In this document: one piece after another, positions 1,779-57,577 of the stretch
Layout of the letters: every line of letters starts with the position of its first letter
Numbering within the stretch: the first letter of the stretch is position 1
Origin: Rhynchopus sp. YZ270_cl-10
Lineage: Eukaryota
Length of the DNA: 64,000 nt
Assembly (NCBI GenBank): GCA_964035575.1
Contig: OZ037834.1
Location: 1,240,001-1,304,000, forward strand
Direction: 5' to 3'
Program-made: the position numbers and the translations under genes
Notes under the pieces: generated by a model
Told to the model about the DNA's origin: nothing
Seen by the model: the letters and a program-made list of their open reading frames with translations, nothing else
Databases searched by the model: none

Positions 1779-1791
1779 ACAAAAAAAAAAA

Positions 1792-1860
1792 GTGAAGTTG
1801 ATAGTGCAAAACGCCCTCTGGGGCGCAGGGCACTGACACTCCGTGGGTTATCGAACCCCG
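1792..1860 (-). mobile_element. 69-nt 5'-truncated copy of the LINE 3' end (family D)
   Basis: Matches 37000-37065 including the last pol codons; A-tracts on both sides. Other copies at ~29961-30033, 44088-44142 and 54905-54960; variants at 53654-53714 and 60620-60668. Confidence 0.88.
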
Positions 1861-2326
1861 AAAAAAAAAAGGGGTTGGTATTAGATGATCACTCAATCCC
1901 TTTCTTGGTCACCTTATTTTCAATATTTTTTTTTTTGAATGAGCGCTTTTTTCTATGTATGATTTGCTTCTCGCATTTTTACCCCCCCCAAAATTGTCAA
2001 AAATGAAAAACTGGGGAGGTCACTGTGGGGGGCACCAAACCAATACAAAAAAAGGGGGGAAAAACAGTAATATGACATGATGTAGTGCAGGGAAAAAAAA
2101 GGTGCTTAAAAAAATGAAGCTTTGCAAAAAAGGGTAAAACGCCATTTGCAGACGAATTAAAACGAGAAAACTTTTCAAAAGGTTATAAGATGTACCCTAA
2201 GACTCTCATACGTATACAGCTTAGGTTGATAGGATGAGCTTAAGATTAGCCATCTAGAGAATGAGATCTCTCTTGTTTTCTTCTGCCAAAAAAAAAAAAA
2301 AAAACAACAAAGCAAATCCGGCACAT

Positions 2327-12307: not shown

Positions 12308-12348
12308 GTTTATAAGATGACCCTAAGCCTCTCGTGCTTAGTCACCTT
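12308..12348 (-). repeat. 41-nt hairpin element (family A), representative of roughly 30 copies
   Basis: Minus strand AAGGTGACTAAGCACGAGAGGCTTAGGGTCATCTTATAAAC then T-tract. Clear copies at 12453, 26188, 28308, 32124, 49447, 52694, 55544, 61544 and 62133. Confidence 0.9.
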
Positions 12349-14123: not shown

Positions 14124-16406
14124 TAGTGGCCAAGTTTGTTGTACCCATTTAGGATAATACCCAGTGGGTATTATCCTAAATTATTTGGGTATTATCCTAA
14201 ATTATTTTGGGTATTATCCTAAATTATTTTTGGGTACTGGGTACTGGGTACTGGGTACTGGGTACTGGGTACTGGGTACTGGGTACTGTGTACTGTGTAC
14301 TGTGTACTGCGCGAGCCACACTCCGGCTCAGGTGCAGGCCAACGCTGCAGGGAACCCGAGATGCTGGCTTGTTGAAGGACACCGTGGGGAAGTTTTCGTT
14401 GCTGGAAACACCTCTACACCGCCCACTTTACGGTACTCACCTCAAGAGAACCGTCGCGAAATTCGTGAAGGACACCGTGGAGAAGTTTTCGTTGCTGGAG
14501 CGTTGTACCCCCACAGTGTTTCGTGCATTTGCTGTGCGAAAGTATATTATGTATTGCATAATATTATGCTGCTCGGCCCTGAAAGCTGTCGACTCGTATT
14601 TCCTCCAAAAAGTCTCCAGAACAATATTTTAAACCCTCAAGCCAACTTATTTTTTTAAGAAGTCACCTTCTTTAATTTCCCCACCACTCACAACTTCACT
14701 TTTAAACAGGTATCGCGAGTGCAGCATCGAGAACCAACTGTGCAGAACGAGCGCATATGCGGTGGAAAGGGTGGTGGGAACACTCTGTCAGTCACTGCTA
14801 TAGCCATTTAACCCAGGGAGCATAGCTAGTGCAAGAAATTCGACTTTGGAAACCTTCCGGAAAGTCTGTCCTCTGCTTACGGAGGACGAGGCACAAGAAA
14901 ATATTGCGTTCCCCCAGAAAACCAGTGCACAATTCACACTCCTTGTGGGTGGTCTTGTTGCCTTTTTGTCACAGTAATTTTGGCCCAGGCATGCTCTTGA
15001 AGCATGACAATTTAGTGTGTATGGGGCAGGGTGTTGTTTTGTTCTGAATTCTCTTTGTTATAACATCTAAGTCAATCGCGGGTGGTGGTTTGTGTAGCGT
15101 GAGGCACTCTTTTTAATAAACTTCCTGCAGTTGCTATGCACTGTTATTTCTTCGGATTTATCATCATACAGCGTAACATAGTGGATTCGCCTGGTCGACA
15201 CAACCTTTGATAGATACGGGATAACCAACCCCCTTCGACCCCTTGTGGGTTCACTGAACAAGCCCTAGTGGTAGTTAAACGCGATTGACATTTACATTCC
15301 TAGAGATGAAAGAACAAGATAACACTTCTGTACCCGCGCATCAAAATTGTGGAAAACTTTGCACCCCAAACACCCTCAACAACGCCCGCCAAAAGGCGCC
15401 CCTTGTTGCTGGGAGTTGGTTCTCATGATACCTGCACAGCGGGCATTCCTCTGAGTCCAACGCATGTTTGGCCTGTCTGCGGCGTTGTACTTAAGGTGCA
15501 CGAAGACTGGGTCTGGTGGTAAATTTTGCGTAGTACTGCGACGTGGTACTGCGTGGGTCTGGGAATTTGGGTACCTGGGTACGGGAAATTTGTTGTGGAA
15601 GACATCAACCACCATGCATTGAGGAGGGTAAGACAGTGTTCGCAGTTTCTACCTGATAGCATTACAACATTTAACTTCTCCACGGGGGTCTTGGGCCGTT
15701 CACTCGGTTCTACCTTGACTACCGGAAGATATTCTTGAGGCCTTTTTGGTCTCTAGAATATCCGGTCTTCCCGAACGGAGGCACACTTTGTGTGTTACTA
15801 CGACCTGGCAATTTCCAGCAGTAGGTTAAGTAATCTTTCTTGTAAATTGTTGGATCATTATCTCCTCAGTGCATGAATGCCCCACGTGACTGGACACTTT
15901 TGTGTTTGTCATGTGGAGCTGTGGTTGCTCTTTCACGACTTTTTTCCTGTTCCTGGGTACCTGTTCCTGGACCTGGACCTGGGTACCTGGGTACCTGGGT
16001 ACCTGGGTACCTGGGTACCTGGGTACCTGGGTACCTGGGTACCTGGGTACCTGGGTACTGGGTACCCAGTACCCAGTACCCAGTACCCAGTACCCAGTAC
16101 CCAGTACCCAGTACCCAGTACCCAGTACCCAGTACCCAGTACCCAGTACCCAGTACCCAGTACCCAGTACCCAGTACCCAGTACCCAGTACCCAGTACCC
16201 AGTACCCAGTACCCAGTACCCAGTACCCAGTACCCAGTACCCAGTACCCAGTACCCAGTACCCAGTACCCAGTACCCAGTACCCAGTACCCAGTACCCAA
16301 AAATAATTTAGGATAATACCCAAAATAATTTAGGATAATACCCAAATAATTTAGGATAATACCCACTGGGTATTATCCTAAATGGGTACTAGAAACTTGG
16401 GTACTA
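14124..16406. mobile_element. Foldback-like element with long, internally repetitive inverted arms
   Basis: The arms are reverse complements. Each has 3 units of GGGTATTATCCTAAATTATTT and a TGGGTAC array (8 units left; 33 CCCAGTA units right). Confidence 0.8.
15979..16298. repeat. Head-to-head satellites (CTGGGTAC)x10 and (CCCAGTA)x33
   Basis: Read directly; the arrays meet at the palindrome ACTGGGTACCCAGT (16057-16070). Confidence 0.95.
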
Positions 16407-16533
16407 GCCTAATTACCCCAAAAAAAAATCTGATACCGACCACGCAGAGTAGTAGTTTCTGCATCCTATCCCACACCCTCCCCTATCTCCGTTTCGGGCA
16501 TCTCCCCCTTAGAACGTCAATAATTCCTTTTTT

Positions 16534-26620: not shown

Positions 26621-27990
26621 TCCACCTGAATTAGCTGGGTGTTGGGAGGTGTTGGGAGGCGTTGGGGGGCGTTGGGGGGTGTTGGCGGGCGTTGGGAGGT
26701 GAGGCACTTTTTTCCCCACCGGCGTGAGCCTTTTTCTCGTTGGTGAAGTTTTTTAAACACCTGCATTGTCATTTCCGGAATCCGTCCTCGCTGTGGTGGG
26801 GTCAATTTGCCGAAATGGACAAGTTCTGAGTACATACGTGATCAATTTTCTCACACTGCACAGTATACACAGTATACACAGTATACACAGTATACACAGT
26901 ATACACAGTATACACAGTATACACAGTATACACAGTATACACAGTATACACAGTATACACAGTATACACAGTATACACAGTATACACAGTATACACAGTA
27001 TACACAGTATACACAGTATACACAGTATACACAGTATACACAGTATACACAGTATACACAGTATACACAGTATACACAGTATACACAGTATACACAGTAT
27101 ACACAGTATACACAGTATACACAGTATACACAGTATACACAGTATACACAGTATACACAGTACAGTACAGTTCTCGTTTTTGGTCAATTTCCGCACAGTA
27201 CACAGTACACAGTACACAGTACACAGTACACAGTACACAGTACACAGTACACAGTACACAGTACACAGTACACAGTACACAGTACACAGTACACAGTACA
27301 CAGTACACAGTACACAGTACACAGTACACAGTACACAGTACACAGTACACAGTACACAGTACACAGTACACAGTACACAGTACACAGTACACAGTACACA
27401 GTACACAGTACACAGTACACAGTACACAGTACACAGTACACAGTACACAGTACACAGTACACAGTACACAGTACACAGTACACAGTACACAGTACACAGT
27501 ACACAGTACACAGTACACAGTACACAGTACACAGTACACAGTACACAGTACACAGTACACAGTACACAGTACACAGTACACAGTACACAGTACACAGTAC
27601 ACAGTACACAGTACACAGTACACAGTACACAGTACACAGTACACAGTACACAGTACACAGTACACAGTACACAGTACACAGTAGCAGTACAGCACCAGAG
27701 GTCGGGATTTTCCCTTGGAGGGCGTCTACATTAATACATTTTTCGCTTTTTTCCCAAATTTCCACTTTGCCTTTGCCACTATTTTTTTGTTTGACTTGGA
27801 ACCGGGACCCCACCCTGGAACCCCCTCCAGAAGGGGGTACAGAACACCCTCAAAAAAAAAAAATCCCAAAATTCGGGCTAAATTGGAGGGGTGTTGGGAG
27901 GTGTTGGGAGGTGTTGGGAGGCGTTGGGAGGTGTTGGGAGGGCGTTGGGAGGCGTTGGGAGGGTTTGCCGTTTTTTGCAAATCAGGTGGA
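26621..27990. mobile_element. TIR element (TCCACCTGA termini, 4-bp TSD) carrying satellite arrays
   Basis: TCCACCTGAATT ... AAATCAGGTGGA; CAAA on both flanks; subterminal GTTGGGAGGY repeats near both ends. Confidence 0.75.
26861..27678. repeat. Satellites (CAGTATACA)x33 at 26861-27157 and (CAGTACA)x69 at 27196-27678
   Basis: Perfect tandem arrays, each preceded by a similar TCAATTT...GCA header. Confidence 0.97.
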
Positions 27991-28725
27991 CAAAGCAAGA
28001 AAAAGAACAGAACAGAACAAAACAGCATGCCAAGGTGAGTAGGGTTGCACACACCTACAAAAACTGGGGCGATAATTCCTTTTTAAAAAGGCACAGTCAT
28101 TCCAACTTTTATTTTTTCTTTTATTTTTTGTGCGGGAAATACGTTCAGGGATAGCAGCCTGTCTTTTTTATTATTTGCACAAAACACCTAGAAATAGTAA
28201 CGAGGACTTGCCGAAAGGAGAAGAATCCGGCTGGGCCCTTTTTAAATACATCAAAGGGTTGTTTAAGGCTGAATCGTGAATCTCACCGATTAAAAAAAAA
28301 AAGAAAAGTTTATAAGATGATCCTAAGCCTCTCGTGCTTAGTCACCTTAAAAAAAACTTTGAAAGATGGACACTAATCTTACAACACAACTGCAAGAGCA
28401 AAACCACAGAAAGAGAATAGCTAGTTTCTTTTTGATGAGATTAAGTCTCAAGTACTTAGTCACCAAAAGGGAAAGTTGGATAAGGTGGACACCCTCCCAC
28501 CCAAAAGAAAATTGCAAGACGGATTGAAGCCCGTCGCCTATCGAAGCCCAAATGGACCTGTATGAATTTACTGAGAGCATTGGTTTACCATTCGTTTTTT
28601 TTGTTGTATCGACAATCACCTTTACGCCTACTGGTATAAAGACATGTACTCAATGGCCGAAGCCTGTACTACAGAAGGAATAGATGCAAATCGCCCGTTT
28701 TTTTTTTTTTTTTTGATAAATTGTT

Positions 28726-29354: not shown

Positions 29355-30746
29355 AATTGTTGAGTAGTGTAGTTGCCTCGGTTGTGTTGCCACAGTTGCG
29401 CAAATCTCCACTTTCCAAAAGTTTTTTTTCTGCCGTTTTCATGGACACATCTGGACCCCCTCACCTGTTGCAAAAAAAAGATTTGTAAGGTAAAACCTAA
29501 GCTCCTGTTACGTTACCGTTGAAACAAAACAAAAAATCTTGTTTAATTTTAGACTACTATCGTGGGATAGCAGCCAATTTTTCTTCAAAAAAAAGAAGCA
29601 AAAAACAAAACAAAAACAACAATGCTAACATGCAGACACCTCTTTTTGAATGCAGGCACGTGAAGAATAAAGTAAAAACAAAACAAAACAAAAAATAAGG
29701 GGGAGGGAGGGTTGTTACAAAGGCACCTTTCGCGTGGCTTTGTGGTGTTGAAGAAAAGACAACCGTAGGCAGTACACGAGCTTCCAGAAGACACGTCTCA
29801 ACTCGGGCAAGGCTAAACCAGTAAGGGAGGGATTAACGTCTTGCGGGTAGGGATGTGGTCTGGAAAGCGTGTGCACTTTTGTTGTGTCGACAAAATCACC
29901 TGCTAGTGCAGGATCTGTACTCAATGTCGCCCGAAGGCTACTGTTTTTTTAAAAAAGAAAGTGAGGTTGACAGTGCAGCTGCGCTTCTGGGACGCAGGCA
30001 CTGACACTCCGCGGGTTATCGGATCACGGAGTGTTCCACTTTGGAAGAAAAACAAAATGGTAGAATGTGTGATGGAAGTCAAAAAAGAAATGGGCAAAAT
30101 AAAACAAAAACCCCAAAACCAAAACAAAATCGCAAAAAGTATTTCCACAAAAAAAAAAAAAACATCCCCCCTTCCCCCTCCCCCTTTGCCCCCGCTCCGC
30201 CATGAAGGCAGAGACAGCAACAAGGTGCCCTGCGCCTGGTCTGTGTCAGGTCAAAAGCACAACTGCAGCAAAACAAAACACAAAAAAAAAAACAACACGG
30301 ATCTCAAAAGTAAAGAAATACGCACATAACATCACACATACAATGGGCGATGCTTCGCTCTTAGGAACTACCCGCATTTGCTTTCAAATGCACACATCGG
30401 TAGTGGCCAGTCTACAAGCAACCCCCGACTCTTTCGGACATTTTGAGTGCATCTATTATTATATTTTTTTTTGACAAAAAAAAAAACATTTTGTCAAAAA
30501 CTAGATTATATAAAGTGAAGTTCATAATGAACAATTATTTGTATTAAAAATTCATGTGCTTTTGATTCAAGAGAACAGAAAAGCATCTTCACGTAAAACA
30601 ATGCGCTCCGTGGCTACCGGATCTCCACGGGAGAGCGTGCGAAAAAAAAAAAAGAAGTAATAAAACGAGATGTGGGTCACCATTTCCCACCTTCAATTTG
30701 TTCTTTTTTTTTCCTTTTTCTTCTTTTCCTTGAAAACTTTTTTTTT

Positions 30747-34990: not shown

Positions 34991-37052
34991 TTTTTGCTTT
35001 TTTTAGAGAAAATGTTGCATAAAGAGAAGCGAGACTGCGAGAAGGGGTATAGGGGATTGGGGGAAAGCACGGAAAAAAAAATCAAAACTGTGTATGAAGA
35101 GAGAGAGAGATGCCGGTAGGGGGGGGAGAAATGTGTGTGGGTGTGTTTTTTTTTGCTAGGGTGGTGTTGTGGGGGGGTATTCTGGGAGGGGATGAATACA
35201 AAAAAAAGTGTGAAGAGGGCAATGAGAGTCTCAGAGTAAACCTTTCATTCCCCCTAACCATAGTAAAAGTAGAGTTGAAATACAACAGCCCTCTCATGAA
35301 CAGTGTACCTTTGGTATGACTGGCTGTACCGGGAGGTGGACACCCCCAACCATGCAGTCCTACATTCCATTTCGTGGTTTATATCTGAAAGAAGGGAGGG
35401 TGTGAAACACTGCGAAATGAGAAATAAGGGAGGGGCTTTTTTTTTTTTTTTTTTGAGATTTGGAGACAATGGAAGGTACTATGCTCCTTTTTTTTTTTTG
35501 AAAACTTTGACAACGTGTACCCCCACCAACGGGCAATCCACGTGACCCGCCCTCCCTTGTTCACGTTTCGTGGAAACCACTGACAATGGAAGGTATTATG
35601 CTCCTTTTTTTCTGTTTTGGGTTTTGGATTTTTTTTTTTTTTTTTTTGTTTTGTTTGTGTTTGGTACTAAAACCATCCCTTCCCTCCACTACTAAGGGGA
35701 TATAATAAAAAGGGGGGCTTTCCGTCCTCGCTCTTCGTCATGTTAGGCGTGTTGTTTGCATGCATTGGGCGTTTGCGTGCAAAGGAAAAGGATTTTTGTG
35801 ACCACAGAACAGCCCTCACAAATTAAAGAAAATGCTATCAGAACAAAACATAAAGCCCTCTCCCGTGCTCCTAGTCGCCTCGGAACATAATAAATATTGA
35901 TTTGAAATACAAAGCCCTCGAATATTGTACCTTGGTATGACCGGCTGTACCGGGGGGGTGGACACCCCCCAACTATGCAGTCCTACATTCCATTTCGTGG
36001 TTTACATCTGATACAATAAAATACATCTGTTTTTTTTTTTTTCAATTCAGGAGAACAGTAAGTACTTGTGAGGGGGAGAAAAAATAAGGTGTGCAGTTTC
36101 AGTCACATCCCCTGACGGTAAGGAATAGAAGTGTTTCGTATACTTTCAAAGTCAAACAAGAGAAAGTACAAAGAACGTTATATACCCCCTACAAGAAAAA
36201 TAGCAACTCTGATAAGTAAAAGCACGTTGATTGCTCAATTACCCTGTTGGAGGGGGTGGGTGATTTGGCGACCGTATATCAGTGTATATCGGAAGAAACT
36301 ATTTCTCCTTTTAAGCTACACTTTGTAGAAGGAAAAGGCTGAGAGACGGAGCGGGAAAAAAGGGGGGTGGGACAAAAACACACAAAACAAAACCTTTGAA
36401 AAATGCATGATCATCGCTGTGCACACATATCTAGATACAACAAAAAAAAAGAACGACACAAGCACAACGTAACCCGTACCAAACACCCCCCATTTTATTT
36501 TGTTTTGCTAGAAACGTAACAGCAAAGGCTTTTGCAGCTCCAATAATAGAGACCCAATTTCTTTTTTTCTCGCGATTCTTTTTTTTGTATTTTTATATGT
36601 CCCCCGGCACAGCTTCTATCAATTACGGAGAATTTTGTTTTGGAATTAACTCGTTCGTTTTAATCTCTCGCTCCATCTTCGTAACATAACATTCTCAGAA
36701 AAATCGGCAGGAATAGCAGAGTTGCCGTGCACGACAGTCTTTGCACTTTTTTTTTCTTTTTTTTCAAAAAAAAAAGGGGGGTATCAAATATGGGAGGCAA
36801 GCCATTTGTGGTCTGTGGTTTTGTGGGTCAAATTCACCCGTTAAACACATGGTTCTGCACTTTAAAAAAAAATATGTTAGGACGATGAATCTAAGACTAG
36901 TATGTTTTAGTCCACCGTACCAAAAAAAAACCAAAAAAAATTCTGATAGACTACTCTCACTCACGGACTGCTATCACCCCACCTTTCGACCAAAAAAAAG
37001 TGAAGTTGATAGTGCAAACGCCTCTGGGACGCAGGCACTGACACTCCGCGGG

Positions 37053-40000
37053 TTATCGAACCCCGGAGTGATGTGCATGGGTGTGGTTTACAGGGAAGCT
37101 GTAAGCAGGTATACAGTCATTACCCCACCCTGATCGGGAAGGGGGGACAGCATGATTTAAAGATTCAAGAAAAGCACGTGTTTTGGCACACAACACTGGG
37201 CGTCTGCTGAATCCGATGAGCGCCGGGGCGCCGACGGAACGGAGGGAGTGCACACGATCCCTCTTCACACCAGGGAATGGGGCGCGGCGGAGATTCGCTG
37301 TTAAAGCTCGCATGTTAGCCTTGACGATGAGCCTTTGCATGACCCGCCCACGTTCACGGATATTAGAGGTCTGTTTGGCGAGGAAGACCCTTGTGCGCAA
37401 TTCGAAGTCGACCGCGAGCTCGACACACGACACGTCGCGGGGTTCTTTGCTCCACTCGAGCGTAATCACCCACCACAGGAAAGCTTTCAAAGTGAACGCC
37501 TCCCTATAGCTGGAGGAAAAACTAGGCCGTAGCTTGGTCAGGTAAGTGCGGAAGGGGGTATCGCGTTTAGAGGCAGCAAATGTGAGATTCCAAGGATGTA
37601 CAGCCGGGGCCACATCCGTTGGATTTGAGAGGGTCGTGTCGATCGTGGTGACGGCATCGAGGAGAAGAGACTGTACCGCCTTCACCGCCACCTTGTTCAC
37701 ATTGGAGGGCACAATGCCGTGCAGCACAAATCAGGTGGGCAGCCCCTTGCCATAGAGGCTGATGGCCGACGCATGTAAGGCAGTGAACGCCGCTGTGTGG
37801 ACAATGCTGCAGTGCCACAGTAGGTGGCGTGTGTGGCATGTAACCTGGATGAGGCACAAGGGGCATTTATCGCTGAAGTCTGCCTCGGGTAAGCCACTGC
37901 GCTTGAGCCCTGCTGGATGGCAGAAGAGGACTCCGCCACACAGAACACGTCGCATCCGGAAAGCCTTGAGGGGGTCGTGGTACTGTAGGGTGTGCCACAG
38001 GGCATTGGTGGCGCGGGTGTCAATGCCGTCGCTTATGCCGTCGTACGTAGGGCGTTTACTCTGCAGATCATCCCAGACCGCCGTACGCGCCAGAGCTCGC
38101 ACTTCATGGGCCCTCTTGGCTTTGTCTGTCCCGATGATGGGGATAGTCTTCGCGGTTGCAGACGTAGACGTCACTGCCCTCATCTCAGGGTCCCAACTCA
38201 CGTCACATCTGCGGGAGGCGGCGAGGACAGACCCCACTGGACCAACTGCATGCATAGGTGTACCCCGGGTTGCCAGGGTCTCGTACCTCTCTCTGATGCT
38301 CATGCACCTCTGGCGTATGGCGTCATTGCGTTCCACACTGGCGGCGTAAGCTCTGAACGTCCTGCATATTGCACTCGAGAGGGGGTGTGCCACGTGCGCC
38401 TTCAGGCAGAGTGTGAGCAGTGCATCCACTGAACGAGTAAGGTAGGTGGGGCCCCAGCAGCACATCGCCACCGCCGTCGATAATTCATTCATCACTGACT
38501 GAGGGGGCATGTTGAAGGCGGACTCATATAACACTGAAGGGAGGATGGCAGAAGTGGCGATAGACACCTTCTGGGAGAAGGAGAGCTGTGTCGCACCCAA
38601 ACATGAGAGCGCCCTAATGGCTGACTGGTATACCGTAGCGTTGTAGCGCCCCTTGCTCCGTAGGGAGCTGTACATCATCACGCCAAGTGAGCGAAGCGAC
38701 TTAGTTGTCTGGAACACATGATTGTCCTCAGACTTCAGCGTGCATTTGTGGTTCTTCAGCGATGAGAAGGCAAAGGTCTTCGCCATGTTGAGGCGCATGC
38801 CTGTGAGGCGGCAGAAGTCCTCCACTCGCAACAGACACGCCCCCACCGAAGCTTCGCTATGGCGAGACAGAAGGTATGCGTCGTCAGCAAACGACCGTAC
38901 AAACGCCTCAGGTACCTCCGCCGTGATGCAGTGCGTCAGGACCGACATCAAGGCGTTGATGAGCACCACAGAGAGTGGGCACCCCTGCAGGATCCCATTC
39001 GTCACGGAGTACGCCTCTCCTACGCCGGAGGGCAGCTTGAACCGCCGTCTCAACGTGGCGTACATCGCTCGTATAGGTGTCATGATCCTGGGGTGAAGCC
39101 CCATCTTTTCAACAAGATCTAAGGTGAGGCCTTGCGGTACGCGATCGAAGCATTTCGCAAAGTCTAGTGCCAGTCCGTGTAGCGGTTCGCCACCGAGCAG
39201 AGCGTCCTCCATCTGTGTGAAGACGTCATACAGGACATCGTTCGTGCTGTGCTTTGGGCGGAAGCCATGTTGCGACGGGTGTGCCCATTGTTCCTGCCAT
39301 TGTTGAACTGCCTGCAGGCGTGCGCAGGCCCATAACCGGTATACCGCACTGGTCACAGTCACAGGACGTAGCTTCAAGGGGGACTGGTCTTCGCCTTTGG
39401 GAAGGAGCGTCACCAGGGCGGTCAACAAGGCTTGTGGCCACACACCGTTCGTTTCTATCGTGTTGAACACTCGAGCAAAACCTTCCAGTATGCATAGGGG
39501 CATCGCATGAAGTTCCAATGAGCGCCAGCCATCAGTTCCGCAGGCGTCCGTGCGCTTACCTTTCCTGTCGAGCGTTCTACGCAAGTCAGCACCACTTAGT
39601 GGGTCTAGGGACATCGGGGAATTTGCGACGAAGCTGCCGAAACGTTGCTCGAAAGAGGCGAGAGTTGGCTCGGGATGGTCGTGGTCGTATAGGTTGAACA
39701 CTGACTTCCACTCATCACGCAGTAGTTTGTCCATCTCCCTGTGATTGGCCGTAAGCACACCGTCCTCTCCCCGAAGGGCGGAAATAGGAACACCCTGTTT
39801 CCCCATGCACCACGCTGTGAGTTTCCGTCGCTCGCTGCTAAAATCCACCTTCAGCTTGGTGGTGTACTGCTTCTCGCGTTGTAGCCGGGTATTGCGTATC
39901 TCGAGGTTCATAAGCGCCTTGGACTTGTTCAACAGAGAGTTAAGGATCTGTAGCTGCTTTTCGAGCGCGGGTGGGACTGTCGTCTCCTCGGACCTCAGCA

Positions 40001-41495
40001 ACTTGAGCGTGACTGCGGTGCGGAACACTTTACCCCAGGCGTTACGCACAGGATTCTCCATCACCCCACCAGGACAAGATTCTGTCTTCGCAATGAGGTC
40101 CGTGAGCTTATACTCAAATTTGGCAAGTTGGTCCTGTCGGGGGGAAGACCCACCAACAGACGCCGGTCGCGTAGGTGCACACACCGGTTTCAGCACAGGA
40201 TGGGGGATCTTGGAGCGGCCGCAGAACCCTTTGGAGAGCGTGTCACCAGCTGCCTTTGCCGCGAGCAGGAGAAACTCTTCCCCAGCCAGCGCGATCGCTT
40301 CCCACGCATCGTCAATGTCACCGGACGCAAGTGTAGCGGCACAGTTGTGTTGTTGTAGAAGGTTCTTGCCGACTGTCTCAGCATTCGCCACCGTCCCAAG
40401 TTCCGGCATCTGTTTGGGGATGGTATACCGAAGTGTCGACTCTGTAAACACAGAGAGGCAGAGTCGCACGTTGACGGACTTGTGGCTGGGGATGCAGTTG
40501 ATACGATGTGTCCAACAGCTATGGACGGCATGTGCAGCGACGCTGTTCAGCAAGATGTAATCGATACGGGTCCCTGCTGAGTCTTTGCGGGTGAACGTGG
40601 CAGGGGGCTTGCCGTCATCCCCAGTGCTGCCCAGGAGCGCGACGTCGCACCAGTCCTTGGCGAGTGCTTTCCGCAATGTTGGTGATCTTTCCACATCAGT
40701 GTTGAGGTCGCCGCACACAATCAACGGAACGTTACCCAGGGTTTCTCGAAACTTCACAAGCACTGTGTGGAGGAGTTCTTCGCGTGCAGCAACTGTAGCT
40801 CTTGGCGTGTCACCTGACGGGGCGTACACATTCACCACATGCAGGAACAGACGGCCGGAACCAAGCGCTACGCGCGTGTGCACCACACGTTTCCTCAGCT
40901 CGGGCTTCAGAGAAGACGTCAGTTCGGTGTCCAGGAACATGATGCCCGGTCTCTTCAGCATGGTGGCCACTCCCCCACGTTCCCCAATGTGTGGACTGCG
41001 GAGGCCATGGACGAGTGTGCCATCCATGGGGGGGCCCCATTCTGGAGACCAGACTGTGGTGAAGAAGTCGTTCATCTCCAAGATCTTGGACTCGGTCAAC
41101 TTTGTCTCTTGTAGACACACTATATCGCACTTCAGGTCGCGTATGATATGTGCGTAGTTCTGTAGGGATGTGCAGTTGATGGTGGTTAGCGTGAGGGTGT
41201 TCTCAGCAGCGGAGCAGCACGTACGCGAGGAGGAGGATCTATCCGTTGAAGAGGAAGAAGAAGAAGCAGAGGTAGAAGAAGATGTGTCTGAGAGTGACGG
41301 GGGGAAAACGGGGCGAGGAGAAAACGATGCCAAGGATGATGATGATGATGATGATGATGAGGAGGAGGAGGAGGAGGTACGGTTTGGGAAGTGGCGGGGA
41401 CCAGGGCGCGTTTCGATGCACTCGCGAGGAAGCTGCTCGTAGTTGTAGGCGGCGAGTGATTCCGGAAAACGCTTCGTGCTGTTGGTGTGGGGGAG
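37053..41495 (-). CDS. LINE pol region: APE endonuclease + reverse transcriptase + C-terminal domain (one internal TGA at 37731-37733)
   Basis: APE motifs TINC, CLQETK, GDLN, RIDY. RT motifs LRPV, QHGFR, LDFAKCFDRV, GILQGCPLS, FADD. CPLC...HLLWHC. The same frame continues past the TGA as FVLHGIVP to the TAA at 37053. Confidence 0.9.
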
Positions 41496-43127
41496 TCAGT
41501 CGCGCTTAGGTGACGAGGCCGCCCCGGTGAATTGAGGGCGGGAGTAGTCGTGGGATTTACCGTCCTGCGCATTCGGGATGTGGATGGCTCCCTTGAACTG
41601 CCTCATCTTGCGTGTGGGCCGGTCCTCCGGGACCGTCTCGCGAATGAGCAGGGGTTCGTGATAGTCCCCTCGCGCTATCTTCGTGAACTGGGGTCGTTCC
41701 TGTGCGCACACGATGATCACATGCTGGCGTTTCTTTTTGTATGAGGAGACACACTTGCAGTCGAATCCCGAAGCCTGGAGGGTTTTGACGATGTCCTCCC
41801 TCAGCTCGTACTGGCGCGCTCCGAGGACGGTGTACTTCATCGCCCGAGGGTCCATCAACGGCGTCACATTGTTCACCCCAATGTCGTTGACCGCCTCCGC
41901 TGTCGCGTAGTTGTTGGTGAGGCGGATGCCGAGGCCCCCCCCGCTGCCGATCACCAGTCCCAAGGTGGTTTCCTCATGGGAGTTGCAGAACTCCCACGCG
42001 TGGTCCATTGTGAGGGCCCGGTCAAGCCACACCACTGCGTAGAGGTCCGGCTGATACGGTACGTGGGACACGGCTGTCATGAACAGCCCCTCATGGCCGG
42101 AGAGACGTAACAGTGGTGCCAGGCGTTCGTTCTTAACCCTCAGCTGGATCGACAGCTGGTAGTCGTTGGTCCTCACCTTCCAGACGTCCCTAGGCCCCGG
42201 GGAGAAGCCCGCTTGTTTGCAGCGGGTGGTGACGAGTGAGCCGAGCTCAGCAGTCGGATTCGCCACTGCTCGCGTCCACACATCCGCGTGCACTACGTGG
42301 GCCTTCGACAGGATGAGTGCTACGATCGTTGTAGACGTCTGGTTGTTCACACTGGTCTCGCGGCATACCTCTGGGGCCCATGTCCAGGTGGGGGTGCGGC
42401 ACACGAAGAACTGCCTGCGGGTGTAGCCGGTTTCGGCGTCGGCTTTTCCCTGTACAAGGGTCGTCACAGCGTCGGCGCAGAACTTCGTCTCGCAGAGGAC
42501 GGCGCACGCAATGCTCTCCTTGCGGTCGCAGCGCCTCTTCACGCGTTCCCACGCCTCTTGCGCGCTCTTCTTGTTGGTGGCGAGGAAGGTCCCCGCTGGC
42601 TGCACGTCCAGCTCTGCCGCATCAGACACGATGGCGGCGCCGAACTGTTTCGGCTGGACCATCCACAGAGGGGCGGGGGTGGCGAACGGCCCCTTGCGGC
42701 GTCTGACCACGTCGGTCCACGTCCCGTTCTGCAAGTGCACGGTGCCTTTGTGCTGCTTGCTGGTGTCGCTGTTGTTGCGGTAGTTGTTGTTGTTGTTGTT
42801 ACTGTTGTTGTTGTTGTTGTTGCGGTGGTTATTGTTGTCGTTGTTGTTACTGCCGTTGTTGTGTTTGGCACTGTTGTTGCTGTTGTTGTTGCTGTTGGTG
42901 TTGCGGTTGATGTTGTTCGCGCTGTGTTTCATTGCATTGGTGGTGGTGGTGGTGGTAGCGGCGGCGCCCTCCCTCGTCACAGGCACCTCCGTCTTCGTCG
43001 TCGTACCCCGGGCCCCAATCATGTCCAACATGATATCTAGGATTTGCAGAATCCTGTCCCGGTCTTCGTCCGTCCTTGCGCTCTTACTGAAGCGCCTCGC
43101 CTTCTCGAGCATAGCTTCATAAGACAT
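41496..43127 (-). CDS. LINE ORF1-like protein (543 aa, Asn-rich low-complexity segment)
   Basis: ATG at 43127 (MSYEAMLEK) downstream of a C-rich CAG; directly upstream of, and in frame with, the pol region. Confidence 0.75.
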   Translation of the reverse strand: MSYEAMLEKARRFSKSARTDEDRDRILQILDIMLDMIGARGTTTKTEVPVTREGAAATTTTTTNAMKHSANNINRNTNSNNNSNNSAKHNNGSNNNDNNNHRNNNNNNSNNNNNNYRNNSDTSKQHKGTVHLQNGTWTDVVRRRKGPFATPAPLWMVQPKQFGAAIVSDAAELDVQPAGTFLATNKKSAQEAWERVKRRCDRKESIACAVLCETKFCADAVTTLVQGKADAETGYTRRQFFVCRTPTWTWAPEVCRETSVNNQTSTTIVALILSKAHVVHADVWTRAVANPTAELGSLVTTRCKQAGFSPGPRDVWKVRTNDYQLSIQLRVKNERLAPLLRLSGHEGLFMTAVSHVPYQPDLYAVVWLDRALTMDHAWEFCNSHEETTLGLVIGSGGGLGIRLTNNYATAEAVNDIGVNNVTPLMDPRAMKYTVLGARQYELREDIVKTLQASGFDCKCVSSYKKKRQHVIIVCAQERPQFTKIARGDYHEPLLIRETVPEDRPTRKMRQFKGAIHIPNAQDGKSHDYSRPQFTGAASSPKRD

Positions 43128-43236
43128 ATGATGATTGATTTTTTTTTTTGTTTTGATTGATCTGTGAGGGGGGGGGAGGGGGGGGGAGACCCCACGGCCG
43201 ACACGCCCGAGCGGAACAGCAAGCGTATTTGACGAC

Positions 43237-43275
43237 CAATGAAGTACAGAAACTGTAGCTTTAGAAATCGTTGGT
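43237..43275 (-). other. Genomic copy of a diplonemid-type spliced-leader exon
   Basis: Minus strand reads ACCAACGATTTCTAAAGCTACAGTTTCTGTACTTCATTG, close to the Diplonema SL as I recall it (AACCAACGATTTAAAAGCTACAGTTTCTGTACTTTATTG). A partial duplicate CCAACGATT precedes it. Confidence 0.9.
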
Positions 43276-45569
43276 AATCGTTGGAAAAAAAAGAAAAGAA
43301 AAAAGGCTGACAAGATGAATCCAAGTCTCTCAGCTTTGCCACCTTTGTCACCTTAAGAAACACAGAAAAAAGTTTGTAATGTTTAGTCACTAAACAACAC
43401 ATCATCTTTCGGCTAATTGACCCGAAAAAAAAAAAAAAAAGCTCCACTTCACTATCGACAATACACAACACTGCAACATTCAGACGCAGATAACGGGTTC
43501 TGCTTCGGGATGCCAAAATACAGTCAGAGAAGAAGAATAAAAAGTTGAAAAAAGGAATGTGCCTTGATGTACACACATTTTTAATAGACGCAGAATTTCT
43601 TTTTGATACAACAGTTCAAGGAGAGCGAAGATAAAAAAGACTAATTTCATTACTTTCCGTTCAAAGAAGAGAAAGCAGAGAAAAAAAAAAAAAAACGGTA
43701 AAGATGGAAAACCCGACTCACCTAAAAAAACTGTAGCGAGCAAAAAAAAAAAAAAAAAAGAAAAAAAGAAAATTGTAAGATGCATGTGCCTCTCATGCAC
43801 ACACACATCTAATAATCGCAATAAGCCTAGAACAAAGTCTACCCCATTGTACTTCCCCCCGTTTTTGAGTTTTTTTTTTGGGGGGGGGACATTCTGAGGG
43901 GTTCCTTTCCAATTATTTAAAATAGTTGGGGCTAAAGGGTGGATTTGTTTGCCACTATCACGTACATTTTTTTTTACGTCCTCCATCATGCACTGATTTA
44001 AAAAAAACGATTTGAAAGCGAGACTGATGGAAAGATAACGACACATACTTTTGGAATATGGTGGAAGGACACACAAAAAAAAAAAAGGTGAAGTTGATAT
44101 GTGCAAAAACGCCCTCTAGGATGGACACTGACGCTCCGTGGGAAAATAGCAAACTGTCTCCACCCCCCTGAGGGCTGTACTTAGTGAGTTGGTTGCAGGT
44201 GGATGTAAAAAAAAGTGTCACTTGTCGTTCCCTCACCCCCCTTCTTGTAGTTGTTTGATGCGTTGACGCTTCCACACACACTAAAAATCACCTGTTGGGT
44301 GGTGGTGTTGCGGAGCACGGTTGGGTGAGTGAACGACGTGACACTTTCCGCTCACAAAGTAGTGTGCGTAAAAAAAAAAAAAAAAAAATGGACAAACAAA
44401 CAAACAAAACTTGCAAGATGAATATAGCCTCTCATGCACACACATCTTTCACAAAATGGTAGTTGTTGCTGCAGGCACACCTCCGACTGACCTACGTACG
44501 ATGCCCAGCCATCCGGATGAAAGCACAAAGAAAAAAAAGCAGGGTTTTGGGAAATGAAATTTATCAAAAAAACTGGGTCTGTGTTTTCTTTCATTATTTT
44601 TTTTTTTTAGGGTACTCTCACTTTTTCTTTTGTTTCTTGTCCCCGCCCGCTCGGATTTTTCAGGGAGGGAAAAAAAAAAAAGTGGGCAAAAAAAAAAAGT
44701 GTACAGGGTTTCCACCAAGGTGGACCGGGGTGGGACCATGCCCACCCCATTATTTTTTCCAGAAAAATCCGGATTTTCACAGGGTTCGGGGGGTATATGG
44801 TGACCCCCGAGAAAAATGGGGTTTGAAGGTTGTAGATGACCCCCCGTGGTCATGCGACCAGAGCATTTGGCACGTTGTAGCCGGGCAAGTAGTGGAGTTC
44901 ATCCTCGGGTGTCTACACTAATACAACCAAGTTTTCAAAAAAGAAAAAAGTAGTGTACCGTGCGCCTGCGGCGCTGTGTTGCTGACTACTGCAACATCCC
45001 CGCAAGGTAGAGAACTGCACGCTCCAATCTGAGCCCCACGGTGGAGAGCAATCAAAAGAAAATGGCACGAGTAAAAAAAGTTGGTAACGTGAGCCTGCGG
45101 CGCTGCCCCCCCTTTACCTTACACTGACGGGTTTTGACCAAAACCAAAAACTTGTCCATTTTGGCAAATTGGCCCCACCACACAACGGACGGATTCCGGA
45201 AATGCAAATGCCGGTGTTTTCGGGCACTTTCGTGTTTTCAGACGTCAGGATCAGGGAGAGAAAATCTGGATTTGGTCAAGGACAAGAAACAAAAGAAAAA
45301 GTGTGAGTACCCTTACCTACATTCTAGGACAGTTCATGTCGAAGAGGGGGGAGGGGATATTCATTTCTTTTTCTTTCGTCGAAAAACCAAAGCAAAGAGA
45401 AGCGGTACATCTCTTGCTTGGCGTTCTAAAGGGGTGAGTCAGATGCCAAATTCCTTTCTTTTCCCTTTTGTTTCATTTTTTTAGTTCGCCACATTCCTCG
45501 CAAAAAAAAAAATTTAAAAAAAAAACAAAGAACAGCCATTTTTTTTAAATTTTTGCAAGAACAAAAAAA

Positions 45570-49144: not shown

Positions 49145-49525
49145 AAGGACCTGCAAAGTCCCTGATTATGGTACCTACCCCCCCCAATACCATTTATAAT
49201 TTCCTTTTCAATAATTTTGTTGGTTGAGTGCAACTGCCATACGACAGCCTTTCACCTTTTTTGAAGTGGTGTCTAATCACCACTGCAAAACTTTGTGCGT
49301 AAAGTGTGTAGCGTATATTCTGTGTTGATATTTTTTTTTGCAATACGCTCCCACTGACTACCTGGCCGTGAAGAGGAAACCTCTTTCAGGCTTCAAATAA
49401 AAATTGAAATACAAAGCCCTCTCTTGGCAGTGCAGCTAAAAGAAGGGTTTATAAGATGAACCTAAGCCTCTCGTGTTTAGTCACCTTTTAAAAGACCACT
49501 TTGTGGTTGGGAAGAGGGGGGAGGG

Positions 49526-51334: not shown

Positions 51335-54300
51335 TTTCTTTTGTGAAAGTTTTGCGGGAAGAGAGGGGGAAGGGGGAAGGAGGGAAGGGGAAGGGGGGTT
51401 TGAGTAAACCCGCAAAGATCTGAAGGGTGCGAAAAAAGGGTGGTGGTGGTGAGGGATTTGATGCATCAAAAAGTGAATTTGCCGTGAATAGAGAAGCTCT
51501 GGGGGTTGTGGAGGTACAGAACAAAAAAAGTTGGCTTGAAATACAACACAGCCCTCGGTGAGAAGGAGTACGGTGCCACGAGGCAATCCAGGGTGGTTTT
51601 GGAGTCTCATCAAGAGGGCGAATGTATTTTTTTTTTGTTTCGGTAGTAAAACAAAGTGAAGTCATGCAGGCACACCTCCGACTAACCCACAGTACGATGC
51701 CATCTGGATGAAAGCACAAAAACTACCCTGCGGCCAACAGAAGAAGAATAAAGATTAAGATATCATTTTCAATCGAAAAGATGGAGTTTTATCAACAGAA
51801 GAAGAAGAAGAAGAAGAAGAAGAAATAACAAAATGGGGGTGTCCTTGCATTTGAGTTTAAGATTCTTGGATTTTTTTTTTAGGAGGTTTTTTTTTTCTTC
51901 TTTTTTTTTTTTTTTTTGCCTTGGGGAAGAGCACAAAGGGGGGGGAAAAGAAAAGACTATAACAACAGTTGGAAAGGTTGAAGAAAAGAAAAGAAAAAAC
52001 AAAAAAACCAAAACGGAAAACTTTTTTTTGAAATGAATGGATGCGGTCTTGATACTAGACTTGACACATCTGAACGACGATGATATAAAAGCGAAGAAAT
52101 AAAACTGTAGCGCACCACCAAAAAGGGTTTTTTGAAAGATGAATTCTGCCTCATCTACACCATCCTTCAAAAAATTTGACAAATCTTGATTTTTAAGACT
52201 CACGAAAATAGCATCCAAAACTTCAAAAAAAAAAAAGGGGGGGAAACGTGGACACGATGGCCAGTTTGATGTGGGAGAGCGTCAAAAAAAAAAAAGTGGA
52301 CGAAAATACTGGTTGAGAATTACTCTCCAAAAAAACGTCAAAATTTTTTATGCCCTCCCGCTCAAACTGGCCACCGTGGAGGGGGGGGCGGAGAAGGGGG
52401 AATGAAGAAAGGTTTTATAGGAATCTATCTAAGCCTCTCATGCTTAGCCAACCTGATCACGAATCGTTGTCGAACGAACTAGCAATGGTAATCAATGGAA
52501 AATGCTCATCCTATACGAGGGGAAAAGACGGTGGGGAAATCGAAGGGGTGTCGGAACACCCGTGTAGTGGGGGAATTGACAAAAAATCGTCAAGAGAAAA
52601 GGAAAAAGAAAAAAGAAAAAAAAAAAAAAAAAACTAAATTTCATATACTTTCTTCAAAGAAAGAGAAAGCACACAAAGAAGAAAAGAGAAAAAGTTTATA
52701 AGATGAACCTAAGCCTCGTGCTCAGTCATCCTGGGAAGAAAAAAAAAATTAGATTCATGTACTTTCCATTAGAGAAATAGAAAAGCAGTTGAGAAAGAAA
52801 ATACCATACTTAAAAGATGAATCTAAGCCTATCACGCTATAGTCACCCAAAAGAAGAAAATAAAAAAAAAAATCTGAAAGTGCGAGCATCTCTGCAGACA
52901 CAGGCACTGCTGAAAAAAAAAATAAGGGAATGGTTATTAATGCAGACACCCCAACTGACCCACGTACGATGTCGGCCATGGATGAAAGCATAAGTACCCT
53001 CAAAAAAAAAGGGGGGGTAGAACGACAAAATGCTCGTGGACCCACCTTCAAAAGAGAGAGAGAAAAGTTTAACAATCCCAAGCAAAAGGCGATCTGTAGG
53101 GTAGAGAACTAATACCGTATTCGTAAAAGAATTATCGATCGTAACAAAGGCTGAACTACCAGAAAAATCTTGAAAAAGGTCGCACATTTATACGATTGAT
53201 ATAATTTTTGTACGAATACTGTAAAAATAACAAAATAACAAAATAACAAAATGCAATTTAAATACCAACTCATTCTTGACCTTTTGGGTAACCAGGCGAC
53301 GCCGGCCAAAAGTAACAACCCAGAATGAGAGCAGTTTACCCCCCTTTTTTTTTCAAAAAATAAACAAATAAGGAAATTCATCCCTTTCCTCTCATCACGC
53401 TTATGCTTTTCCCGGTCTGTACTGAACGGGAAATATGCTTGTATACCAAGCGCATGCTGAGACATACGGTGGAAAGGGTTTAGTCTCCTTAACACGAAGC
53501 GCACACAGAAACAAGAACCATACGTAGAGAAAGAAATAAAAAGAAAAAGAGAGAGAGAAAGAGAGAGAGAGAGTGTGTGTGTGTTCTCTATAAAAGCGAA
53601 GGGTACAAATGTTTTGTCACGTTTTGCAAAAAATGAAAAATAAAAAATAGAGAGAAGTTGAAAGTGCAAGCGCCTCACCGTATATCGGCGGACGCAGGGC
53701 ACTGGTTCTCTGGGTAAAAAAACAAAACAAAACAAAACGAGACGTGCTTTCAAAAAAAAAAAAAAAAAAAAAAAACATTTTTTTTTTGCTAATACCAATG
53801 CACACCATGGATTCATCAGGACAATACGAGCGTTATGACGTCGTAATTACGAGGGGGGTGCCCGCGTCATGACGACGTATTGCGATAATTTCCCCACGTT
53901 TTTTCCTTCGTCGCTCGTCACGTAATGTCCTTACGAGTCCATGGTGCAAACACCCCGAGGGGTGGTGCACTAATACTATTTAAAAAAAATGCGCTTTTAT
54001 GAGATGTTGTGATTGATTTTTTTTTTTTTTTTTTTTTCTCTCCTCCTCTTTGCTTTTTTTTTTTTTGAGATCGCGTTCTATACCATATCAGAAAAGGGTA
54101 ATATTACACAGGGAAAAAGAAGAAGAAGAAGAAGAAGAGGAAAAAAAGGGTTGTAAGATGAATGTGCCTCTCGTGCATACACACATCTACAAAAAAAAAA
54201 AACAACCGCAACAGCAGTTGAGAGTATTGCCTTGGATGTGTCAAGAATCAGATTTAAAAAAAAAAGAAGAAAAAGAAAACGACTTCAGGATATGACAATT

Positions 54301-55039
54301 TAACGAAAAAGAAAAAAAAAACACTTTTTTTTTTTCGGTTATCGCACCGCAAAAGGCTTTGTGCATTTTTTTCACTGCAGAATAATGTGTGAGGTATGCG
54401 TCAGTGAAGAAAAAACCCAATCCTCTTAGACGGGCACGCACCATCCGTCGTTTTCCATTTCTATTTCGGCAATGTTAGATAAACCCCCCCCAAAAAAAAA
54501 ATTTGTGTTGTCAACCGCTCAAAGCATAGGGAGGGGAGGGAGCAAAGCGAAAGCCTTGTTCCTAGTCAGAGTGCTCTGCGGAGTGAAGGTGTTTTGTTTT
54601 TTTTTTTTTGTTTTTGTTGTGTCGACAATCGCCGAGTAAACCCACCAGGTGGGAGAATTCGGGTCTGTACTATTTTTTTTTTTACATTTTATTTTGCAGT
54701 GTCCCCCTCCCCCCCCATCCAAGAGACGTTGATTTTTTTTTTTTTTGTGCAAAACCCTTCATCGGATCAACAAAACAAAGTGAAGTTGATAACGTACAGA
54801 GACACCTCTGGAACCTCATCCCACCTTTATAACAAGCTGCAAAAAACCTGGAAAAGGCTCCGTTCAAAAAAAAAATTCGCAATAGAAAAGAAGAAAAAGA
54901 AGAAGTGAAGTAGATACTGCAAGACGCCTGTAGGGGGACGCAAGCACACCAACATTCTGTAGAGGTTCTCGAAACCCCCCAGAGTGCTGCGAGAGCTGTA
55001 CTATCCCCCCCACCAGAGCGCTGTATTACAGATTTGCTT

Positions 55040-55077
<38 letters not shown>

Positions 55078-57046: not shown

Positions 57047-57577
57047 AAAAAGGGTCCTTATTTGCATTTTTGGGCTCCGCCCGTGCAGTGGTGGGGTCAA
57101 TCTCGAAAATTGGACAATTTTTTGAGCACTTAAATTTTGAGAAATATGAGCCCGGTTCCTTATACGTGGGGCCCATTTTCAGCTAAAATTTTCCTCAAAA
57201 TCTGGTTTTGTAAAATTGACCCTTTCCCCCCCCCCCCACATCGATTTCAATACTATACCTTACTTCACCTACGGTTCCCCTTACAGGGGGGGTGAAGGAA
57301 GGTAAGTTGAAAAAAGGGTCCTTATTTGCATTTTTGGGCTCCGCCCGTGCAGTGGTGGGGTCAATCTCGAAAATTGGACAATTTTTTGACCACTTAAATT
57401 TTGAGAAATATGAGCCCGGTTCCTTATACGTGGGGCCCATTTTCAGCTAAAATTTTCCTCAAAATCTGGTTTTGTAAAATTGACCCTTTCCCCCCCCCCC
57501 CACATCGATTTCAATACTATACCTTACTTCACCTACGGTTCCCCTTACAGGGGGGGTGAAGGAAGGTAAGTTGAAAA
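57047..57577. repeat. Tandem duplication, 264-bp period
   Basis: Two copies, with one substitution seen (GAGCAC/GACCAC). Confidence 0.95.

Follow-up and report, generated by a model that had tools for sequence, protein, structure and literature searches.

In a 64,000-nucleotide (nt) stretch of contig OZ037834.1 from Rhynchopus sp. YZ270_cl-10 (assembly positions 1,240,001 to 1,304,000; hereafter the window, in whose own numbering all positions are given), we found a long interspersed nuclear element (LINE) whose 3' end is a hairpin-bearing module followed by a run of T. The element lies on the minus strand at ~43284..36992 and, by its open reading frames (ORFs) and Pfam matches, encodes ORF1, an APE endonuclease and a reverse transcriptase. 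All copies of its 3' unit in the window are followed by T-rich sequence, and the full-length copy opens with a spliced-leader (SL) sequence. From these genomic copies we propose, with a probability of about one half, that the element may integrate by a mirror image of target-primed reverse transcription (TPRT), in which a hairpin-marked RNA bearing a U-run would be copied into genomic T-tracts.

The LINE ends in a hairpin module and a T-run

On the minus strand the reading frame of the element closes with GGG GTT CGA TAA (TAA at 37055-37053), followed by a short 3' untranslated region (UTR) and, directly after the last conserved base, T8 (Table 1). RNA folding of the last 86 nt placed two hairpins upstream of ATCAACUUCAC and the U-run, with a fold energy in the full-length copy of -31.3 kcal/mol against -21.9 +/- 3.1 for shuffled sequences (z = -3.0). 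Among the four best window copies, two more folded at least as well, with z-scores of -3.6 and -4.1. Because hairpin 1 takes in the last ORF2 codons together with the stop codon, the 3' module belongs to the LINE and not to a neighbour. The inner stem of hairpin 2 holds two G.U pairs, so that it is no inverted repeat at the DNA level, and an outer GGAGU/ACUUC pairing, which competes with hairpin 1 in the full-length copy, does form in the shortened copy 1777-1865. The initial annotation of this stretch, made from the letters alone, had described a hairpin-bearing 53-nt UTR after TAA and then T8 as the end of the LINE, with another T8 ahead of its 5' end. The minus-strand reading confirms both, the latter at 43292-43285; the stems drawn there also appear in the RNA fold, except that the inner one needs the two G.U pairs and the outer one rivals hairpin 1.

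Seven copies share one 3' end and the T-run after it

We searched the window with the element by blastn, which gave three extra copies, and then with an nhmmer hidden Markov model built from four copies (E < 0.01). Together these searches placed the ~70-nt 3' unit seven times within the window, each time on the minus strand; nhmmer at this threshold returned no plus-strand copy. The seven copies end alike at ...ATCAACTTCAC but begin at differing points. A constant 3' end with variable 5' ends identifies them as 5'-truncated LINE copies and the hairpin end as the true 3' end of the element. For the copy at 54905..55041, likeness past 54977, up to a T34 run at 55042-75, was judged by eye. We also considered the opposite reading, in which the A8 at 43285-92 on the plus strand is the A-tail of an antisense-oriented element, and rejected it because the variable end of the shortened copies points into ORF2.

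All seven copies carry 9-11 T within the 12 nt 3' of the unit. At least 9 T in 12 occur at 4.9% of 40,590 intergenic minus-strand positions and at 3.1% of all positions, and the chance of seven out of seven is about 0.049^7, assuming that the copies are independent. The T-runs of the window copies differ in length (8, 10, 11 and 12). An A-run or A-tail after the unit, as in L1, was found at 0 of the 7 window copies, and the flank consensus of public contigs (below) was likewise T.

We then aligned Logan contigs from four public runs to 36700-37700 (4657 contigs from run X1 and 8221 from run X2). The 13 public runs listed for the stretch included no RNA run. In X1 the word depth summed to 78-361 over the flank and to 1.79 million at 37006-37039, 0.80 million at 37040-37073, 0.19 million in the bin beyond 37073 and roughly 0.01-0.12 million deeper in ORF2; such depth is no copy number, and we read it solely as very many copies, most of them shorter than ~80 nt. 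Seven copies in the 64 kb of the window itself are in keeping with such abundance. Depth climbed toward 37000, and loose contig ends fell at 37052, 37064 and 37070. A weak 5' flank consensus at 37064 and 37070, with an agreement of 0.43-0.51, could be taken for the head of a short interspersed element (SINE), a reading that we did not adopt. At 36992, 161 contigs in X1 and 211 in X2 lost their match. Beyond that point their plus-strand consensus read A throughout the 30 places shown for X1 and at 29 of 30 for X2, which corresponds to T on the strand of the element; this evidence is summary output, from which T-run lengths and flank alignments are not derivable. Loose ends at 37016 corresponded to the variant termini CTTCTC+T10 and CTTCACC+T12. 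Many of the public contigs were at least 99% like the stretch, and their flank consensus was also T. The unit was present, with a match extending through A8, in two runs labelled as other organisms (X6 and X7). A pattern for the unit had no match in metagenome_contigs, genome_contigs or viral_contigs, and of 110 pattern matches in metagenome_contigs to a profile of the ORF2 C-terminus none was upheld by tblastn.

A T-run directly upstream was found at the full-length copy and at three of the six shortened copies (four of seven in all): T10 at 1861-1870, T6 after a T-rich stretch at 53717, and the T34 at 55042-75, which counts if the extension of that copy by eye holds. Only T-runs repeat on both sides of a copy, T8/T8 at the full-length element and T10/T11 around 1792-1865. 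A T-run 3' of every copy and 5' of about half is consistent with copies that enter T-tracts and end in a tail-like run, and T-runs on both sides, as far as sequence can indicate, suggest that such tracts are where copies insert. All seven copies lie on the coding strand, for which the probability is about 0.025 given that, in the 64 kb, runs of T8 or longer number 124 on the minus and 85 on the plus strand; this is a hint of an orientation bias toward the coding strand.

These results bear on the earlier proposal that the polarity of priming is reversed here. It had allowed that T-tract adjacency might be no higher than expected in so homopolymer-rich a background, or that young copies might carry A-tails; adjacency is far above expectation (7/7 versus 4.9%), and window copies up to 93.5% identical end in T-runs. 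The hairpin end thus stands as the true 3' end in the sense of the ORFs, with a T-run in place of an A-tail, whereas the mechanism, both the priming by an A-run DNA end on a U-ended RNA and the choice between read-through and uridylation as the source of the U's, is still something that we infer. Upstream T-runs at the full-length copy and at three of the six shortened copies fit the suggestion that T8 may be a target-site duplication; the other three have none.

A spliced leader opens the full-length copy

After the upstream T8, the element starts with CCAACGATT-ACCAACGATTTCTAAAGCTACAGTTTCTGTACTTCATTG-GTCGTC..., that is, a partial SL, a complete 39-nt SL and then the remainder of the 5' UTR. 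The complete SL was recognized by its likeness to a spliced leader named 'Euglenozoa 14', which we take to be that of Diplonema. Against the 39-nt sequence printed in the portion of the source available (PMC3795323), local alignment gave 36 identities in 39 aligned columns, the differences being a substitution beside a one-base insertion and one more substitution. Its conserved 13-mer CAGTTTCTGTACT has a single occurrence in the window and, among the literature matches listed, stands in trypanosomatid or SL trans-splicing contexts. The first 1-2 nt are absent from both SL pieces, as though reverse transcription had halted near the cap. Rfam gave no match at or near threshold in the 5' UTR of the element.

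As this copy opens with a complete SL exon, its template was likely a trans-spliced mRNA. The simplest reading, judged from the one full-length copy that is our source both for the 5' boundary and for the SL, is therefore that it is likely a retrocopy of such an mRNA; a rival reading is that the SL was acquired by template switching onto SL RNA. We rejected insertion into an SL RNA gene, because the element has the entire SL exon at its own 5' terminus and no SL remainder in its 3' flank. If the template is made by RNA polymerase (Pol) II within a polycistron, the T-run of the full-length element would not serve as a Pol III terminator.

A proposed mirror-image priming model

In the mechanism that we propose, the template RNA would arise from polycistronic Pol II transcription and then be trans-spliced. 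An oligo(U) directly 3' of the hairpins would be a read-through copy of the T-run at the source copy. Within a homopolymer tract of T.A pairs, the APE endonuclease would introduce a nick in the A-strand, and the A-run 3' end set free could then pair with the oligo(U) of the RNA, while the reverse transcriptase would recognize the hairpin module and be positioned by it. As synthesis would start at the U-run, nothing past it would be copied, and every new copy would show hairpin plus T-run, lie within a T-tract and have duplications made of T alone. On the coding strand, such a tract may double as the pyrimidine tract used to trans-splice both the element and the gene that follows; a benefit from landing there would account for the strand bias. 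The principle of an RNA 3' end that anneals to the target has, by analogy, a precedent in R2Ol, where pairing between a read-through 3' end and the target increased retrotransposition from 12% to 96-98%, according to the part of PMC6530143 consulted.

Several observations weigh against this model. The fourth of the best copies does not fold (z = +0.4). Covariation in the hairpins is weak, with an invariant outer stem: RNAalifold on a MAFFT alignment of six copies gave -3.4 kcal/mol with compensatory pairs at 1 of 12, a poor consensus that arises because loop indels misalign the stems. Agreement in the flank consensus of the contigs is low, 0.40 in X1 and 0.44 in X2, and describes a tendency and no length, as expected if T-runs of varying length pass into unrelated flanks. 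With three of six shortened copies having no direct upstream T-run, a T-only duplication is either not general or not visible. No empty site was seen for any LINE copy, and T's carried by the RNA are thus inseparable from T's of the target. The full-length copy in the window is itself defective, with TGA at a conserved Cys. Finally, the U-ended template RNA is deduced from DNA, and a trans-spliced mRNA ought to carry a poly(A) tail; its U-run would have to act from an internal position or be exposed in some way.

Other explanations for the T-runs

Part of the model can be kept without a U-run. The RNA would then end at ...CUUCAC, the cut would fall in a T.A tract and a reverse transcriptase held by the hairpin would start unpaired, as in R2, the adjacent T's being pre-existing. 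This account gains from the abundance of T8 or longer runs in the window, from the T-runs on both sides of several copies, and from the fact that the U-run is itself a deduction. However, a T-run found 3' of seven in seven copies and 5' of three in six shortened ones fits a tail better than a split target, and in some copies CAC and the T-run are separated by an additional C or an altered base, which is tail-like junction variation. We regard it as unlikely. It is also conceivable, with a lower probability still, that the U-tail is not templated and that a terminal uridylyl transferase adds it after the hairpin, to pair with A-tract DNA. Euglenozoa are rich in uridylyl transferases, and the T-runs of window copies vary in length as untemplated tails might; yet homopolymer slippage alone yields such variation, and added and templated U are not separated by these data. 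In human L1, moreover, uridylation and terminal U's on the mRNA are reported to restrict retrotransposition, as stated in the excerpt of PMC6191937 at hand.

The 65-80-nt units could instead form a Pol III-transcribed, SINE-like family with U-ended transcripts, whose tail the LINE shares or has donated. A T-run of four or more terminates Pol III transcripts, and the 5' part of the unit, within hairpin 1, contains GGTTCGATAACC, in which we presume a likeness to a B box. The summed depth of the last ~70 nt, 15-100 times that of the LINE body, would suit such a family, and poly-T tails are known from 26 of 61 grass SINE families in the accessible section of PMC5585668. Nevertheless, ARAGORN found no tRNA-like genes, Rfam gave no matches at gathering and none near threshold at 36850-37120, and a tRNA-like head with A and B boxes, which defines tRNA-derived SINEs, was not seen. 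The units start 1-6 nt before the B-box-like motif, a 12-mer, which leaves no room for an A box upstream; their 5' ends vary (37052, 37064 and 37070) as truncation would have it, and the SL on the full-length element points to Pol II. For that element we ruled out Pol III transcription on account of the 5' SL and of seven internal runs of four or more T, one of them T5, where composition predicts ~7.6 and there is hence no depletion. A Pol III family thus seems improbable. Least probable by far, in our judgement, is that the T-run is no retroposon tail at all, and is either adjacent by chance or part of a host intergenic signal, hairpin plus pyrimidine tract, carried along by the LINE. The homopolymer-rich background would allow this, and unrelated mini-units of hairpin and T-run share the strand bias (24/24) and could have a host function. 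Against it stand the odds of adjacency at all seven copies given above, the overlap of the unit with the LINE stop codon and conserved C-terminus, the steady 3'-ward rise in depth expected of 5'-truncated LINE copies, and the placement of units at no fixed position relative to host ORFs.

Returning to mirror-image priming, we can tentatively extend it, as a possibility that we would not yet favour over its negation. Diplonemid LINEs may carry out mirror-image TPRT, with a U-ended hairpin RNA and an A-strand primer. By landing in sense orientation in pyrimidine tracts of polycistrons, they would borrow host transcription and SL trans-splicing, leave an SL fossil and give the downstream gene a new pyrimidine tract. 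The same machinery could have spread thousands of tail-only copies and perhaps the other hairpin-plus-T mini-units, adding homopolymers to the genome, and would represent the first type of autonomous partner for T-tailed retroposons.

Anatomy of the element and its relatives

The coding region is a single minus-strand frame split by two TGA codons (frames 43352-41499, 41495-37734 and 37730-37056). ORF1, of 543 residues, has no Pfam family above cut-off, its top score being a sub-threshold 18.8 bits for Ashwin (cut-off 27); it contains an Asn/Thr-rich low-complexity stretch (NNNSNN...) at 42700-42850 on the minus strand. In ORF2, residues 111-321 match PF03372 (1.1e-14) and residues 706-939 match PF00078 (5.1e-22), so that an APE endonuclease lies N-terminal to a reverse transcriptase within one ORF, as in APE-type non-LTR retrotransposons. 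Human L1 ORF2p is the top solved-structure match (3.8e-18). Pfam did not find an RNase H domain in the element.

A protein search returned a 96%-identical copy (P0001), relatives at 56% (P0002) and 45% (P0003), and many Diplonema papillatum LINE proteins at 30-48% identity; none of the 77 matches was from a trypanosomatid. On these matches the host is most probably a diplonemid. Along with the Pfam domains and P0001, relatives at 36-56% identity, many of them from D. papillatum, support the identity of the element. The C-termini of the three closest relatives, P0001-P0003, all read ..VR. All three keep Cys where the window copy has its second TGA (37733-37731), which is thus a nonsense mutation in a slightly decayed copy whose ORF2 extends to TAA. 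At the ORF1/ORF2 border, where the window copy has its first TGA, P0002 begins with Met. Near the N-terminus of ORF2 (residues ~25-32, window ~41400-41420, minus strand) there is a 2A-like 'ribosome skipping' motif, CIETRPGP in the window copy (Asn to Arg) and NIETNPGP in P0002; D/N-[VI]-E-x-NPGP also occurs in P0005 (two copies), P0006 and P0017.

Genomic setting

To judge from its reading frames, the window is a co-directional gene cluster, as in Euglenozoa: the minus strand, the coding strand on which all seven unit copies also lie, carries every one of its ten large host-like ORFs, of which five match Pfam domains (PqiA, oxidoreductase, Plus-3, protein kinase with PH, and SAP). Homopolymers are common, with 124 A8+ and 85 T8+ runs on the plus strand as well as G and C runs. 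Rfam and ARAGORN, run on the window and on both element ends, gave nothing at or near threshold.

A second repeat family consists of ~45-nt mini-units of the form Tn-AAAGGTGACTAAGCACGAGAGGCTTAGGTTCATCTTATAAAC-Tn, with 24 nhmmer matches, 24/24 of them on the minus (coding) strand. One sub-type keeps a GAGAG loop and a CATCTTACAA tail, while its stem differs yet stays complementary. Mini-units flank the LINE at both ends, and some Logan contigs join 36940 to 36992 without the 51-nt mini-unit between them. Elsewhere, long tandem arrays of 9-nt and 14-nt (possibly 7-nt) repeats lie at 26750-27750, 15967-16407 and 14124-14309; complementarity is 96% between the arms 14124-14309 and 16221-16406 and 89% between 14231-14313 and 27192-27274. 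Dispersed repeat pairs stand ~16-17 kb apart (29877-29967/47314-47404, 79% identical, and 30740-30801/46689-46750, 87% identical). An exact 264-nt tandem duplication also occurs, as does a three-copy ~310-nt repeat that lies within an ORF region (coordinates 57047-57574 and 8180-9100).

Table 1. Positions of the LINE, its shortened copies and mini-units in the window
Feature	Position	Strand	Basis and remarks
T8 upstream of the element 5' end, possible target-site duplication	43285..43292	-	read directly
Extra partial SL, 5' part, CCAACGATT, 9 nt	43276..43284	-	ahead of the full SL; read directly
Spliced-leader sequence, 39 nt, ACCAACGATTTCTAAAGCTACAGTTTCTGTACTTCATTG	43237..43275	-	local alignment to 'Euglenozoa 14' SL
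5' UTR, 109 nt, between SL and ORF1 ATG	43128..43236	-	read directly
ORF1	41499..43127	-	first ATG 43127-43125; 543 residues; Asn-rich low-complexity stretch
In-frame TGA at the ORF1/ORF2 border	41496..41498	-	both ORFs in the same frame
ORF2 (APE endonuclease, reverse transcriptase, C-terminal part)	37056..41495	-	Pfam
Second TGA, within ORF2	37731..37733	-	Cys in P0001, P0002 and P0003
Hairpin 1, CACUCCGGGGUU-CGAU-AACCC-G-CGGAGUG	37042..37070	-	RNA fold; last codons and TAA inside
3' UTR, 53 nt, CCCGCGGAGTGTCAGTGCCTGCGTCCCAGAGGCGTTTGCACTATCAACTTCAC	37000..37052	-	after TAA; conserved in copies 1792-1865, 29961-30033 and 44088-44146
Hairpin 2, AGUGC..GCGUC-CCAGA-GGCGU..GCACU	37011..37039	-	RNA fold; followed by ATCAACTTCAC
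T8 run (A8 on the plus strand)	36992..36999	-	immediately follows the element's last conserved base
Shortened copy	1781..1870 (unit 1792-1865)	-	blastn 93.5%, 77-column match 1784-1860; T10 1861-1870, T11 1781-1791
Shortened copy	29951..30033	-	blastn 29953-30033, 86% identical; then TTTCTTTTTT
Shortened, older copy	44075..44146	-	blastn 44080-44142, 81.5% identical; then C+T12
Diverged copy	53654..53716	-	nhmmer E 5.4e-5; T-rich directly on both sides
Diverged fragment, last 34 nt of unit	54780..54813	-	nhmmer E 0.007; then TTTGTTTTGTTG
Diverged copy	54905..55041	-	nhmmer E 8e-4 for 54905-54977; TTCTTCTTTTTC downstream
Mini-units, examples	12295-12352, 28295-28352, 49434-49492, 43293-43347	-	nhmmer
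Degenerate mini-units	36941-36991, ~36880-36925	-	nhmmer family

Comparison with known systems

In textbook LINE integration, an A-tail or a target-matching 3' end of the RNA pairs with nicked DNA. An autonomous LINE family with all copies ending in a T-run would show that this homopolymer rule is invertible, and a short hairpin module with a U-run would make a ready system in which to test how a reverse transcriptase selects its start site. In the literature that we searched, which excluded Repbase and most subscription journals, we found no autonomous LINE with a T-run tail; T-tailed SINEs are already known, and a T-tailed autonomous LINE is apparently unreported in that literature. For diplonemids, the genome paper on Diplonema papillatum, in the portion consulted, states that rigorous identification of transposable elements awaits a better assembly (PMC10161547).

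The element resembles L1-type LINEs such as human L1 in its order of ORF1 and an ORF2 with APE and reverse transcriptase, in its 5'-truncated copies with one 3' end, and in a homopolymer tail abutting a homopolymer-rich target. It differs in that the tail is T on the sense strand and is preceded by a conserved hairpin module; with T instead of A, the primer strand would need to be A-rich and not T-rich. With R2, R1 and microsatellite-specific LINEs it would share a structured 3' UTR that positions the reverse transcriptase and a target-like RNA end that pairs with the nick. Its endonuclease is of the APE type, as in R1, whereas R2 has a restriction-like enzyme. The targets of LINEs listed in the available part of PMC6530143 comprise rDNA, telomeric repeats and microsatellites. 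Unlike these sequence-specific LINEs, the present element would target mononucleotide T-tracts genome-wide and not one gene or a 2-5-nt repeat, a specificity that is deduced from flanks (3' T-rich at 7/7 copies, directly 5' at 4/7).

Among the LINEs of Euglenozoa, INGI/L1Tc and CRE/SLACS/CZAR are comparable in host group and in a spliced-leader link. INGI elements have APE and reverse transcriptase, and L1Tc has a 2A-like motif, as does the present element near the N-terminus of ORF2. Here, however, there is no RNase H by Pfam, the 5' end carries an SL, the tail is T and no trypanosomatid protein was matched (0/77); we call the 5' end an SL and not Pr77 without having compared the Pr77 sequence itself. 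CRE elements have a restriction-like endonuclease and are sited inside SL genes, in contrast to an APE-type element with a full-length SL exon of its own at the 5' end and no SL remainder in its 3' flank. For both kinetoplastid clades, CRE as well as INGI, the section of PMC12278014 at hand describes poly(A) tails. A 5' spliced leader together with strict coding-strand orientation would link retrotransposition to polycistronic transcription and trans-splicing in Euglenozoa, for which little is on record.

In stringent-type LINEs (L2 and UnaL2), the reverse transcriptase recognizes a 3' stem-loop, and the terminal repeat is a short oligonucleotide repeat. The conserved 3' hairpin before a terminal repeat, and very short or non-autonomous copies that share only the tail, are common to both; here a T-run stands instead of the oligonucleotide repeat, and recognition of the hairpin by the reverse transcriptase is putative. 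The sense strand of T-tailed plant SINEs, of which Au and p-SINE are examples, ends in poly-T as does that of this LINE. To our knowledge, the LINE partners of many T-tailed SINEs are unidentified. T-tails are also anticipated by SINE-Finder, which takes six A or six T as a tail in the text available of PMC7315354. The plant SINEs are tRNA-headed, non-autonomous and transcribed by Pol III, whereas the present element is an autonomous coding LINE with a 5' SL and without a tRNA head, and a LINE of this kind would offer a candidate type of autonomous partner for them.

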